A DNA stretch of 64,000 nt from Bacteroidales bacterium (GTDB taxonomy: Bacteria; Bacteroidota; Bacteroidia; Bacteroidales; UBA3663), in contig JAZQPJ010000034.1 in assembly GCA_045628525.1 (NCBI GenBank), positions 4,061-68,060 of the forward strand, read 5' to 3'. The notes under the pieces were generated by a model. That model was not told where the DNA came from and ran no database searches. It saw nothing but the letters and a program-made list of their open reading frames with translations. The stretch's first letter is position 1. Every line of letters starts with the position of its first letter. Position numbers and translations under genes: made by a program. Shown here in pieces: positions 11,453 through 14,848 of the stretch.

Positions 11453-12538
11453 ATGAAACCGCAAACAATTATCCGTGTGTACAACATTTTCCGACTTGTC
11501 GTTGTCCTGGCATGTCTGATTTCTCTCATCATCTTTGCGAGCAAGACGCAGGCGCAGGACATTCATGGCATCTTGCGCGGCAAGTATGAATATCAGCCAG
11601 AGATGGAGGCTTCGCGCTTCGAGGTGCGCAATGCGCGTCTCTCGGTCGATGGAAGCTTGAAGCAGGTGGCAGCGTACAAACTGGAGGTGGATCTGTGCGA
11701 TGAATCGGCCATCAAGATGAAGGACGCATGGGTGCGACTCACGCCCTGGAAGTCGCTTCGCGCAACCTTCGGACAGCAGCGAATGCCGTTCAGCATCGAT
11801 GCACACCGTAACCCTTCTGCTCAATATTTTGCCAACAGATCGTTTATTGCCAAGCAAGTGGGCGATATGCGAGATGTTGGCTTTCAGTTGGGTTATGACT
11901 GGCTAAACGAGGAAGGCAGGAAAGTCGTTGTGCTCGATGCCGGAGTGTTCAATGGCTCGAACCTCGACAATCAGAAGACGGCTTGGTTCACCTCTCCAAG
12001 CTATTCTGCTCGTCTGCAGTGGTTCCCGGTCAAGGAGTGGGCAATCATGCCAAGCATCCAGCACCAGAAGATTGCTGAACGAAAGGCGGCTTATACGTCG
12101 CTCGATTTCGGTACTTACTACGAACGACCCCTCCCATCATCCCCTTATAGGGGCGGTGTCCTGCACCTCGAAGCCGAATACCTGCACAAAACCTATCAGC
12201 ATAATGCCTTTGCCGATTGTGATGCGCTCGATGTAATGGCGATTTACAGGCAGACGTTGGGCGAAAAGAGCTACTTTGAGGGTGTCAGCTACCTGCTGCG
12301 CTACGACATGATGGAAGATCATAGCGACGGAAAGAAAGGCATTGGAGAAGACAACAAATTACAGATTACAGATTACGCACGCAAGCGTCTCACGGCTGGT
12401 GTGACCTTCCATGTGCGCAACCATGATTTTCCTACCGATCTGCGCTTGAACTACGAAAAGTATTGGTATCGTGATGGAGGCATTGCCAAGGAGTCGGAGC
12501 AGGATAAGGTGGTGTGCGAGCTGATGATCCGCTTCTGA
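11453..12538 (+). CDS. Phosphate-selective porin O/P family outer-membrane protein
   Basis: Signal peptide ending KTQAQ; family-typical FEVRNARLSVDG, KDAWVRL and FGQQRMPFS. It sits upstream of a PiT transporter. Confidence 0.8.
   Translation: MKPQTIIRVYNIFRLVVVLACLISLIIFASKTQAQDIHGILRGKYEYQPEMEASRFEVRNARLSVDGSLKQVAAYKLEVDLCDESAIKMKDAWVRLTPWKSLRATFGQQRMPFSIDAHRNPSAQYFANRSFIAKQVGDMRDVGFQLGYDWLNEEGRKVVVLDAGVFNGSNLDNQKTAWFTSPSYSARLQWFPVKEWAIMPSIQHQKIAERKAAYTSLDFGTYYERPLPSSPYRGGVLHLEAEYLHKTYQHNAFADCDALDVMAIYRQTLGEKSYFEGVSYLLRYDMMEDHSDGKKGIGEDNKLQITDYARKRLTAGVTFHVRNHDFPTDLRLNYEKYWYRDGGIAKESEQDKVVCELMIRF
12127..12160. repeat. C-tract/G-tract palindromic insert (core CCCCTTATAGGGG) inside the porin CDS
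   Basis: GACCCCTCCCATCATCCCCTTATAGGGGCGGTGTCC; translates as RPLPSSPYRGGVL. Confidence 0.6.
12356..12377. repeat. Heptamer-repeat element (reverse orientation) read through in the porin CDS
   Basis: AAATTACAGATTACAGATTACG is the reverse complement of CGTAATCTGTAATCTGTAATTT. It encodes KLQITDYA. Confidence 0.8.
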
Positions 12539-12577
12539 TCAGAATCGAAAATAGTAAATCAAAAAATCTAAATCAAT

Positions 12578-14848
12578 ATGGAATCCATTTTCTTAGGTAT
12601 CGTCATCTTCCTCTGCGTCCTCGCCATCTTCGACCTCGTCGTGGGTGTGAGCAATGACGCGGTCAATTTCATCAATTCTGCCATCGGTGCCAAGGCGGCA
12701 TCGTTCAGGACCATCATCATCATTGCGGCCATCGGCGTGTTTGCAGGTGCGGCCATGAGCAATGGCATGATGGACGTGGCACGTCACGGCATCTTCACAC
12801 CGCAATACTTTACGTTCTACGAGGTTATGTGTATTTTCCTTGCTGTGATGGTGACCGATGTGGTGCTGCTCGACGTGTTCAATTCCCTCGGCATGCCAAC
12901 CTCCACCACCGTCTCGATGGTGTTCGAATTGCTCGGTGGTGCGTTCGCCCTGAGCCTTGTCAAGATGGTGCATGGCGAGACGATGGCCGACGGCACGTTG
13001 CTCACCCTGGGCGACCTGCTCAATACCGACAAGGCGCTGAGCGTCATCATGGCCATCTTCATGAGCGTGGCTGTCGCCTTCGTCTTTGGCTTGCTCGTGA
13101 TGTGGCTCTCACGCCTGATCTTCTCCTTCATCAAGCCGCAGAACCGCTCGCTCAAGACCATCCTCTTTGGCGGCCTTTCAGCCACAGCCATCATCTGGTT
13201 TCTCTTGATCAATGGTTTGAAAGGCTCGTCGTTCATGACCGCTGATGTCAAGGCAATGATCAACGACAACACCTGGGCGATCCTCCGCATCTGCTTTGTG
13301 TCGATGTCTGCCTTGATGGCCGTGCTTTCGCTCGTGCGCGTAAATATATTAAAGGTGGTGGTGCTGATGGGTACGTTCGCCCTGGCGATGGCCTTCGCAG
13401 GCAATGACCTCGTGAACTTCGTGGGCGTGCCGCTCACGGGATTGGACGCTTTTCTTAATTACAGATTACAAATTACAGATTACGGTGCTGCTGACCCTAA
13501 CAGCGTGATGATGACGTGCTTGCAGGATTCTGCCCACACCCCCGTCTATTTTCTCTTTGCTGCAGGCATCGTGATGGTGCTCTCGCTCATCTTCTCAAAG
13601 AAGGCGCAGAACGTGGTCAAGACATCGGTCGATCTCTCACGTCAGGACGAGGGCGATGAGATGTTCGGTTCTTCAGCCGTGGCTCGCACCATCGTACGCT
13701 CCACATCAAGAATGGGTACTTTCTTGGCCGATTTCATCCCTGCGCCACTCACTCGTTGGGTCGATAAGCGCTTTAATACCGCAGATACCGAATTGCCAGA
13801 AGGTGCCGCTTTCGACATGGTTCGCGCCTCCGTTAACCTCGTCCTCGCCGGCTTGCTCGTCGCCTTGGGCACCTCGTTCAAGCTCCCACTTTCCACCACC
13901 TACGTCACCTTCATGGTGGCTATGGGTGCCTCGTTGGCCGATCGTGCATGGAGCCGTGAGTCGGCAGTATTCCGTATCACAGGCGTGCTGAGCGTCATCG
14001 GTGGCTGGTTCATCACCGCAGGCGTGGCGTTCATTCTCTGCTATCTGGTGACCAATGCCATGTACTTCGGTTCGTATGTCGTGATGGGCATTGCCATCGT
14101 CATCGCCATCGTACTGCTTATCCGAAGCAACTTGAAATACAAGGAGAAAGATATCGATGAAGAGGAGAAGCTCTTCCGCGAGATCCTGCGCAGCAAAGAC
14201 ACCAAGCAGACGTGGCAGCTCCTCTGTCAGCACATCCGCATGGGCAATGCCAAGCGTGTGGCGTTCGTCATGAAGTCGTATCGCCAATGTACCGACGCTT
14301 TCCTCAACGAGAAATACCGCCCCTTGCGGCATTGCTCTGCCGCCATCGACGACGAGCGCAAGACGATGAAACGTCAGCGTCGCCGCGAGATCATTGCCAT
14401 GCGTCGCATCGACCCACTGCAAGCCATGCAGCGCAACACGTGGTATTATCTCGGCATCAACTCCGTGCAGCAGATGCTCTACTGCATGAAGCGCATCAAC
14501 GATCCGTGCCGCGAACATGTCGGCAACAACTTCGAACCTATGCCTGAGGCCTTTCACAGTCGTTTCATTCGTCGTCGTGATGAAGTTCTCGCTGTGTTCG
14601 GCAAATCGCTACTGATGCTACGTTCGGGTGACTTCACCGATGCAGAGGCACTTCGCAACGAGAGCGAGACGCTGCAAGGCTACCTTTCGAATGACCGCAA
14701 GGAACTGCTCGACACCATGCAGCGCACCGACAACAACATCACCACCCTCTTGCTCACCATCCACATCCTGCAGGAGAGCCAGGAGCTCATCGGTTCGCTC
14801 CGCCACATGTTGCGCGGAATGAATAAATTTGCCGGAGAGGAGGGATAA
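12578..14848 (+). CDS. PiT (PHO4) family inorganic phosphate transporter fused to a C-terminal PhoU-like cytoplasmic domain
   Basis: Duplicated GxSNDAVNF / AGNDLVNFVG PiT signatures, more than 10 TM segments and a helical tail of about 230 aa. Confidence 0.85.
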   Translation: MESIFLGIVIFLCVLAIFDLVVGVSNDAVNFINSAIGAKAASFRTIIIIAAIGVFAGAAMSNGMMDVARHGIFTPQYFTFYEVMCIFLAVMVTDVVLLDVFNSLGMPTSTTVSMVFELLGGAFALSLVKMVHGETMADGTLLTLGDLLNTDKALSVIMAIFMSVAVAFVFGLLVMWLSRLIFSFIKPQNRSLKTILFGGLSATAIIWFLLINGLKGSSFMTADVKAMINDNTWAILRICFVSMSALMAVLSLVRVNILKVVVLMGTFALAMAFAGNDLVNFVGVPLTGLDAFLNYRLQITDYGAADPNSVMMTCLQDSAHTPVYFLFAAGIVMVLSLIFSKKAQNVVKTSVDLSRQDEGDEMFGSSAVARTIVRSTSRMGTFLADFIPAPLTRWVDKRFNTADTELPEGAAFDMVRASVNLVLAGLLVALGTSFKLPLSTTYVTFMVAMGASLADRAWSRESAVFRITGVLSVIGGWFITAGVAFILCYLVTNAMYFGSYVVMGIAIVIAIVLLIRSNLKYKEKDIDEEEKLFREILRSKDTKQTWQLLCQHIRMGNAKRVAFVMKSYRQCTDAFLNEKYRPLRHCSAAIDDERKTMKRQRRREIIAMRRIDPLQAMQRNTWYYLGINSVQQMLYCMKRINDPCREHVGNNFEPMPEAFHSRFIRRRDEVLAVFGKSLLMLRSGDFTDAEALRNESETLQGYLSNDRKELLDTMQRTDNNITTLLLTIHILQESQELIGSLRHMLRGMNKFAGEEG
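13456..13484. repeat. Heptamer-repeat element (reverse orientation) read through in the PiT CDS
   Basis: TAATTACAGATTACAAATTACAGATTACGG; encodes NYRLQITDYG. It shares GTAATCTGTAATTTG with the nptA and wbqC leaders. Confidence 0.8.

Follow-up and report, generated by a model that had tools for sequence, protein, structure and literature searches.

A heptanucleotide repeat before and within phosphate-uptake genes of a Bacteroidales bacterium

The window analysed here, a stretch of 64,000 nucleotides (nt) from a Bacteroidales bacterium (contig JAZQPJ010000034.1 of assembly GCA_045628525.1), carries short tandem arrays of a 7-nt unit that reads YYGTAAT in the sense of the mRNA and ATTACRR on its complement. 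The arrays stand before genes and, in a porin gene and a PiT transporter gene that both serve phosphate uptake, inside the reading frame. We consider it probable, though well short of certain, that they are a heptanucleotide simple-sequence repeat which turns over by slippage or short-patch conversion, and not a mobile element. A preliminary description of this DNA had proposed that a mobile or recombinogenic element inserted at random and that the orientation of the in-gene copies was the mark left by selection. Part of that description stands: the PiT copy is lineage-specific, the in-gene copies read the stop-free strand, and there is a link to phosphate genes. The insertion in the porin, the orientation bias as evidence and the mobile element do not.

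Results and discussion

The element and its copies

Both in-gene copies have the sequence (ATTACAG)n, the reverse complement of the (GTAATYY)n leader arrays that precede the Na+/Pi cotransporter (NaPi) gene and a WbqC-like gene. The porin copy, AAATTACAGATTACAGATTACG (12356-12377), lies in frame in the Porin_O_P gene and encodes KLQITDYA; the PiT copy, TAATTACAGATTACAAATTACAGATTACG (13456-13484), lies inside the PHO4/PiT gene and encodes NYRLQITDYG. Re-reading of the window confirmed both sequences and translations as first described, together with their locations. The PiT string given at that time has 30 letters where 13456-13484 covers 29, a one-base slip. The arrays, related leaders and host genes are as follows.

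4571-6253, minus strand: Na+/Pi cotransporter gene with a C-terminal PhoU domain (Pfam Na_Pi_cotrans 7e-60, PhoU 3e-07)
6259-6301, minus strand: NaPi leader array of six units, GTAATTT GTAATTC GTAATCT GAAATCT GTAATCT GTAATTT(G), then AAAAT and ATG
6315-6322, minus strand: -7 promoter box TATCTTTG (TAnnTTTG), which places the NaPi array in the 5' untranslated region (UTR)
11419-11447, plus strand: porin leader repeats, two times TTTAATCGTAAATCG, then AAAAG and ATG
11453-12538, plus strand: phosphate-selective porin O/P gene, 361 residues (Pfam Porin_O_P)
12356-12377, plus strand: porin in-gene array of 3.3 units, K302-A309 (KLQITDYA)
12553-12577, plus strand: PiT leader, AGTAAATCAAAAAATCTAAATCAAT, with TAAATC units; homologous to the ppk leader of relatives
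12578-14848, plus strand: PiT (PHO4 family) phosphate transporter gene, 756 residues (Pfam PHO4; homologs)
13457-13484, plus strand: PiT in-gene array of 3.7 units, N293-G302 (NYRLQITDYG)
57896-57916, plus strand: leader array of the WbqC-like gene, GTAATCT GTAATTT GAAATCA, then ACAAT and ATG

Tandem Repeats Finder reported period-7 tracts at 6262-6301 (5.7 copies), 12354-12376 (3.3) and 13458-13483 (3.7). Chance expectations were taken from shuffles, and the probabilities of in-gene codons given below were calculated under the window's codon usage. With at most one mismatch GTAATCTGTAAT is matched 11 times in the window (0.22 expected), and ATTACRRATTAC is matched 9 times (0.01 expected). The exact 14-mer AAATTACAGATTAC occurs four times against an expectation of 0.00 and is common to all four window copies, which agrees with the earlier statement that the leader element, reverse-complemented, gives the in-gene copies and has at least 14 nt in common with them. 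It is also correct that three of the four copies are found at phosphate-uptake genes; the fourth is located between a signal peptidase I gene and the WbqC-like gene. Head-to-tail 7-nt units in 3.3-5.7 copies, commoner than chance, are the hallmark of a heptanucleotide simple-sequence repeat.

The porin copy

KLQITDYA aligns without a gap to a conserved segment, xL-x-[ILQ]-[ST]-D-[YA]-[AE]-R-x-R, in 120 of 120 porin homologs (57-98% identity), among them proteins of other genera, for example Candidatus Minthosoma caballi. The homologs read KLQISDYARKR, KLIISDYARHR, RLLQSDAERHR or xLxLTDAERHR at this site. In the 120-homolog alignment an indel-rich loop immediately precedes the segment, and L303, D307, R310 and R312 are invariant in an alignment of 56 porin sequences. 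In the AlphaFold2 (AF2) model, a beta-barrel with a mean predicted local distance difference test score (pLDDT) of 86, residues 302-309 form a non-strand connector (pLDDT above 90) just before the strand 310-321. We compared the DNA with four relative contigs, L121-L124, whose porin genes are 84-98% identical in nucleotide sequence to that of the window; the array region has the same length in all five. The preliminary description had taken this copy to be a lineage-specific insertion. Homologous residues are present in other genera, with no gap in 120 homologs, and that reading is therefore refuted; the protein alignment, the DNA of the four relatives and the AF2 model together rule out an insertion. 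As judged from these comparisons, the porin copy formed in place.

The DNA at the site reads AAATTAATTATTTCTGATTATGCC in L121, AAATTACAGATATCAGATTACGCG in L122, AAATTACAGATTACAGATTACGCA in the window and L124, and GATTACAAATTACAGATTACAGATTACGCA in L123. In L123 GAC AAC has become GAT TAC (Asn to Tyr), giving one further unit by substitution. In going from ATATCAG to ATTACAG, and from GACAAC to GATTAC, the series alters two adjacent bases each time, and the in-gene array is kept in the relatives that are 96-98% identical. Given the peptide LQITDY, the codons observed have a probability of 2e-4; TTA accounts for 2.9% of Leu codons. Codons as improbable as these imply a DNA-level homogenising process, and neither protein-level selection nor chance, as their source. 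Candidates for this process are slipped mispairing with subsequent repair and short-patch conversion; the donor in the latter case would be the NaPi leader, which is 6 kb away and whose first 19 nt are identical.

The PiT copy

Among 120 PiT homologs RLQITDY occurs only in the window's protein and is missing even from those of 94% identity. The copy is thus lineage-specific, as had been claimed: the other 119 homologs lack it, and some of them carry insertions at the same position. The array sits between the conserved GNDLVNFVGVPLTGL helix and the following membrane helix, where three homologs (P0060, P0063 and P0072) have unrelated 8-residue insertions. The AF2 model has a pLDDT of about 60-67 at the site and draws residues 293-302 as the end of the helix 274-302. 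Contigs L123 and L124 end before PiT, and the nearest DNA for this site is that of L121. The two genes are 87.5% identical overall; over about 90 nt around the array (about 13440-13530) identity falls to 35-60%, while the flanks mostly remain at 83-98%, and the net length change relative to L121 is +9 nt.

The loop after the array (13485-13530), GAADPNSVMMTC, matches homologs of 64-80% overall identity at 7-8 of 15 positions and the nearest homologs (85-94%) at 3-5 of 15, which suggests a small recombinant or rapidly rewritten patch. Since the loop resembles distant homologs more than near ones, the PiT array lies in a mosaic patch of an indel-tolerant connector and is not a clean insert. An ancestral (G/A)ATTAC, encoding Asp/Asn-Tyr, could have been the seed of the array. 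The probability of the codons given NYRLQITDY is 6e-7.

Orientation

Four units in the GTAATCT orientation contain TAA in all three frames, as does any leader-orientation array of at least three units; the preliminary description had correctly pointed to stops but placed them in two frames only. It was right that the reverse orientation has no stop in any frame: ATTACAG units read as the cyclic peptide ITDYRLQ in every frame, and both in-gene copies present the leader element on this stop-free strand. They are found in reverse only because the forward orientation, with TAA in all three frames, would truncate the protein. The stop-free orientation within genes is therefore a logical necessity and not evidence about insertion; being forced, it cannot separate insertion from other models. 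For this reason, and with two cases only, we do not follow the view that the pattern is the trace of selection on random insertions.

Leader arrays and promoter context

The NaPi array makes up most of the leader of its gene and ends 5 nt before the ATG. The array of the WbqC-like gene and the variant-unit array of the porin leader likewise end 5 nt before their start codons, and the repeat-like PiT leader reaches its ATG. All three phosphate transcription units (NaPi, porin and PiT/former ppk) thus have GTAA(A)T-type repeats of 7-8 nt just before the start codon, and with the porin and PiT leaders included the link to phosphate genes is stronger than was first claimed. Directly upstream of the NaPi array is TATCTTTGCAGCG, with the -7 box of the form TAnnTTTG, which we take to be the Bacteroidota-type -7 promoter consensus. 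With this box directly upstream, the NaPi array is almost certainly transcribed as 5' UTR. The TATCTTTGC(A/G) motif is found upstream of many other window genes and is kept in L122-L124. The start-proximal position of the window's leader arrays, in the orientation with stops in all frames, is that of heptanucleotide repeats of this kind.

A structured RNA leader or a known RNA family was considered and ruled out, as the NaPi leader folds no better than shuffled sequence (z = 0.08) and no Rfam family matches anywhere in the window. A degenerate 7-nt periodic leader, ATAATTC ATAATTG AAAAATC ATAATAT (21113-21147), was also seen directly upstream of a TSCPD-domain gene (21148-21402).

Array turnover in relatives

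The NaPi leader has six units in the window and in L124 (one substitution apart), five in L123 and two in L122. In the same contigs the promoter and the 11-bp-phased repeat TTGTCAT-AAAA-TTGTAAC-AxTG-TTGTAAT above the array are nearly invariant. The porin leader has one additional TAAATCG unit in L123 and reads GTAATTTGTAAACTG at the corresponding place in L121; the ppk leader of L121 has a different 7-nt unit, GTTAnnA, in four copies. Unit number and unit sequence therefore vary among close relatives beside conserved flanks, a further property of heptanucleotide repeats. With units changing next to a conserved promoter, the leader arrays behave, on this comparison, as a microsatellite and not as a conserved binding site or a discrete mobile insert.

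The gene order of the relatives differs from that of the window. It is porin-ppk-ppx-PiT in L121, and in L123 and L124 too the gene after the porin is ppk. The window lacks ppk-ppx, and its PiT gene is joined directly to the sequence that serves L123 and L124 as ppk leader (window 12539-12577 against L121:3789-6986, L123:4641-4682 and L124:2101-2142). From this alignment the window looks as if it lost ppk-ppx by a precise deletion of about 3 kb.

Phosphate neighbourhood

The arrays lie near a PhoB/PhoR-like pair (1684-3772), which is downstream of the NaPi gene, and near several sites that resemble a Pho box. The Pho-box consensus of E. coli PhoB consists of two 7-bp direct repeats, CTGTCAT, with a 4-bp spacer. 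The relevant features are listed here.

1684-3126, minus strand: histidine kinase (Pfam HisKA and HATPase_c)
3005-3772, minus strand: OmpR/PhoB-type response regulator (Pfam Response_reg and Trans_reg_C)
3777-3793, minus strand: Pho-box-like site before the PhoB-like regulator gene
6322-6350, minus strand: Pho-box-like triple direct repeat with 11-bp phasing, TTGTCAT-AAAA-TTGTAAC-ATTG-TTGTAAT, kept where the arrays differ
11318-11334, minus strand: Pho-box-like site on the strand opposite to the porin promoter and about 70 nt upstream of it
14864-14880, plus strand: Pho-box-like site just after PiT

Sites of the form TGTMAY-N4-YTGTMAY number six in the window against 1.8 expected, and half of them are promoter-placed at genes of the phosphate cluster: two overlap in the NaPi promoter and one precedes the response regulator. 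The array unit YTGTAAT is identical to a half-site of the 11-bp-phased Pho-box-like repeat. The arrays themselves were rejected as a Pho box because of their 7-bp phasing and their positions downstream of the -7 box or in coding sequence; they resemble the box in the half-site and differ from it in lacking a spacer.

Other features of the neighbourhood were recorded. About six hairpins resembling repetitive extragenic palindromes (REP), AGTCCGAC-N10-GTCGGACT, lie downstream of PiT (14880-15157), the later ones in a 42-bp tandem, and a small motif TGTAAT TGTAAAT CTG is found at 14944-14962. Tandem arrays with a 42-bp period at 39746-39970 and 53757-54082 (2.3 to 5.4 copies) have unrelated units and are apparently intergenic. 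A YafQ-type toxin gene (4227-4499, plus strand) lies between the response regulator and the NaPi gene, and genes for a DUF3990 protein, a putative aspartyl protease and a Schlafen/AlbA_2 protein (6930-7610, plus strand) lie between the NaPi gene and the porin.

Distribution in other bacteria

One scan of species-representative genomes and one of metagenomes each gave at least 120 loci, and an open reading frame (ORF) heuristic was applied to about 270 arrays. Among the matches listed, (GTAATYY)n arrays occur in Cyanobacteria, Bacteroidota, Acidobacteriota, Chloroflexota, Ignavibacteria, Planctomycetota and bacteria of the candidate phyla radiation (CPR), often adjoined by other heptamer arrays. 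A long ORF starts within 45 nt downstream of 31 forward but 15 reverse arrays. Reverse arrays are read through by 19 spanning ORFs (17 distinct arrays), which resemble by eye, without a family search, UvrC, PheT, ThrRS, MiaB, RlmN, Lgt, Pol III delta' and RNase H. In other bacteria the repeat appears, again as identified by eye, as in-frame additions of 7-14 residues within conserved housekeeping proteins. Stretches of ITNYELR/ITDYRLQ are encoded within ORFs of unrelated bacteria at L003:4076-4115, L046:2181-2206, L224:2460-2485, L052:5992-6010, L038:4451-4483 and L041:5756-5788, ORFs that resemble UvrC, PheT, ThrRS, MiaB, RlmN and Lgt on the same inspection by eye. Several forward arrays provide the stop codon of a full-length upstream gene; counting forward arrays that end an upstream ORF, no split gene was found among the roughly 270 arrays listed. 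In other taxa the genes that follow forward arrays revealed no phosphate theme when their translations were inspected by eye.

The metagenomes also contain a recurrent inverted-repeat element. Its outer parts are ATTACAGATTACAGATTAC-AGTTT and AAACT-GTAATCTGTAATCTGTAAT, and the 115-318 bp between them have a (TATA)n-rich near-palindrome at their centre. The element was found at L151:2608-2779, L156:1432-1620, L159:2304-2659, L166:266-446, L195:5237-5426, L215:5403-5555 and L243:7694-7883. Its terminal inverted repeats are (GTAATCT)2.7. In gut and rumen metagenomes its sites are ordinary intergenic regions, and neither of the two examples checked has a recombinase next to it. It could be a miniature inverted-repeat transposable element (MITE), an invertible segment or an origin-like element. 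It was rejected as the source of the window copies, which lack its inner AGTTT flank, and the element itself is absent from the window.

Comparison with known repeats

The closest parallel is provided by the TAACTGA direct repeats of marine Beggiatoaceae, Cyanobacteria and some Bacteroidetes, which mostly stand a few nt upstream of start codons (MacGregor 2015, PMC4679880). Forward TAACTGA copies contain stops in all three frames, and 11 ORFs have reverse copies translated as LSVISYQ; such repeats, were they mobile, could according to that paper survive only where inserted in reverse or at the periphery (PMC4679880). The present arrays share the tandem 7-nt units (2-6 copies), the start-proximal position and the forward stops in three frames. 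They also share a minority of reverse copies translated in ORFs as a cyclic heptapeptide, and neither repeat has a predicted RNA structure or a functional theme downstream across taxa. The unit is different, YYGTAAT with the peptide ITDYRLQ in place of LSVISYQ, and we therefore regard the arrays (GTAATCT/GTAATTT/GTAATTC) as the same kind of element but not as members of the TAACTGA family. A further difference concerns the porin copy, whose residues are conserved and belong to the body of a beta-barrel and which came about without any indel, whereas the in-ORF TAACTGA copies of BOGUAY are mostly at protein ends or in hypothetical ORFs (PMC4679880). Unlike in the TAACTGA report, the change in unit number is documented directly in relatives. 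Start-proximal heptamer repeats and the stop-filter argument are thus already known; the different unit and the host are new.

In PMC4692102 and PMC4679880 heptamers are described as over-represented among long simple-sequence repeats in bacteria and as varying rapidly in length between close relatives, with polymerase slippage as the proposed cause (Mrazek 2007, as cited there). The present repeat agrees with long heptanucleotide repeats in being over-represented, mostly intergenic, near ORF ends and widely variable in both length and sequence among close relatives. The GGGAATC/GGGGAYT repeats of Xanthomonas and Nostoc are characterised there as G-rich and forming G-quadruplexes, whereas the present unit is AT-rich and unstructured. 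Many of the listed GTAATTC arrays are found in Nostoc, Calothrix and Rivularia beside other heptamer arrays, in the manner of the cyanobacterial short tandemly repeated repetitive (STRR) heptamers. Published STRR units include CCCCAGT, TTGGTCA and CAACAGT; compared by these units alone, they differ in sequence from the present one. In Haemophilus influenzae 7-bp repeats upstream of the adhesin genes hmw1A/hmw2A grade expression by copy number. The AGAT repeats in the uspA2 5' UTR of Moraxella (cited in PMC4679880) likewise grade expression. The leader arrays resemble both in lying between promoter and start codon with a strain-variable copy number. They differ in that the tracts are short, the organism is not a known phase-variable pathogen and the arrays are known here from sequence alone.

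Proposed origin and alternatives

We propose that in this Bacteroidales lineage the normal site of the repeat would be an AU-rich, unstructured 5' UTR between a TAnnTTTG -7 box and an A-rich pentamer before the start codon, both in genes for phosphate acquisition (NaPi, porin, ppk/PiT) and in one or more further genes. The leader arrays gain, lose and mutate units fast among the relatives, for which replication slippage would be one cause and short-patch templated conversion between copies a few kb apart a second possible one. Both in-gene copies would be by-products of the same DNA-level process and, in our view, have no function of their own. In the porin, codons for K-L-x-I-[ST]-D-Y-A that were already repeat-like appear to have been homogenised by a few substitutions at unchanged length. 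In PiT a strain-specific array has replaced about 9-12 nt of a variable connector in a mosaic patch of about 90 nt. In an organism without Shine-Dalgarno sites, the leader arrays are most likely unstructured spacers, or else standby or protein-binding sites for translation initiation, and array length would tune expression.

Several observations weigh against this proposal. Slippage was not seen directly, and 3-4 imperfect units are short for efficient slippage. The direction of the porin series, toward or away from the repeat, is not polarised by a DNA-level outgroup. The PiT copy is no clean multiple-of-21-nt expansion, and the wider divergent patch goes beyond slippage alone. Three further facts lie beyond a neutral microsatellite model: copies are concentrated at three phosphate genes inside 7 kb, all four have one 14-mer in common, and the YTGTAAT unit equals a half-site of the Pho-box-like repeats close by. 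The clustering and the shared 14-mer could be due to short-range conversion from one neighbouring copy to another.

The model of the preliminary description, in which a small mobile or recombinogenic element inserts randomly, selection purges the stop-containing orientation from genes and survivors remain in tolerant loops, we regard as unlikely. It would account for a strain-specific PiT copy at a place where other homologs tolerate insertions and for the in-frame additions to housekeeping proteins elsewhere; a sequence-specific element with terminal inverted repeats of the same unit does exist in gut and rumen metagenomes, and the identical 14-mer fits copying from a common source. Yet insertion does not apply to the porin copy, the mosaic patch of PiT holds a replacement and no discrete insert, and neither copy has target-site duplications or fixed flanks. 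Insertion of a transposable element or MITE was accordingly rejected, as no discrete insert, defined ends or duplicated flanks are found at either copy. Unit number and sequence drift in place among relatives as in a microsatellite, split genes are missing from the arrays listed, the window copies are without the AGTTT flank, and the forced orientation does not discriminate. No inverted partner of the arrays lies within range in the window, and the genes near them are ordinary (9 kb either side of the phosphate cluster and three other sites were scanned). Coincidence, with peptides that merely happen to be encoded by repeat-like codons, is hardly credible: the L..I[ST]DY residues of the porin are ancestral and ATT-ACA-GAT-TAC alone amounts to 1.7 units, but the codon probabilities for both peptides and the four occurrences of a 14-mer with none expected speak against it. 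It is effectively refuted for PiT, and the porin repeat is present in relatives.

A functional role in the phosphate regulon, with the arrays as cis-elements and the in-gene copies retained for their contribution to regulation, seems to us improbable. Three phosphate units with leader repeats and two in-gene copies do lie within 7 kb of a PhoB/PhoR-like pair, the 11-bp-phased repeats conserved in the NaPi promoter have a half-site equal to the unit, and the porin array uses rare codons and is kept in close relatives, where it is extended by one unit. At 96-98% identity, recent common ancestry accounts for that retention. A phasing of 7 bp is at odds with the 11-bp head-to-tail arrangement of OmpR/PhoB dimers, and the arrays lie downstream of the -7 box and not at -33. 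Orthologous leaders vary from six to two units and in unit sequence where the Pho-box-like site is conserved; an array also precedes the WbqC-like gene, and other taxa show, by eye, no phosphate theme downstream of forward arrays. We likewise see only a slight chance that tandem PhoB-type half-sites (YTGTAAT), or phosphate-responsive RNA-binding sites, were spread in cis from gene to adjacent gene of the phosphate regulon by short-patch conversion and overwrote coding sequence, conserved stretches included, with rare codons as in-gene regulatory arrays. It is very doubtful that the in-gene arrays are phase-variation switches, in which gain or loss of one 7-nt unit shifts the frame and turns the porin or PiT off or on. 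In favour of such switches, a 7-nt unit is not divisible by three, the genes concern envelope and transport, and unit number varies in the leaders. But the two in-gene tracts, of 3.3 and 3.7 units, are short and imperfect, 120 of 120 PiT homologs and all five porin alleles are in frame, the L123 extension arose by substitution and not by an added unit, and the porin tract encodes invariant residues. With all alleles in frame and such tracts, a phase-variable contingency locus was ruled out.

Conclusions

No new mechanism is revealed by these arrays, and they would carry more weight only if they proved to be functional elements of a phosphate regulon. If the proposed simple-sequence repeat is the correct reading, they would be a small, clean case of a DNA-level repeat process rewriting coding sequence: conserved porin codons would have been turned into a microsatellite at unchanged protein length and against codon preference, and a PiT loop partly replaced. 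It would also add gut or rumen-type Bacteroidales to the hosts of start-codon-proximal heptamer repeats, a poorly understood class, here with a different unit that is widespread across phyla.

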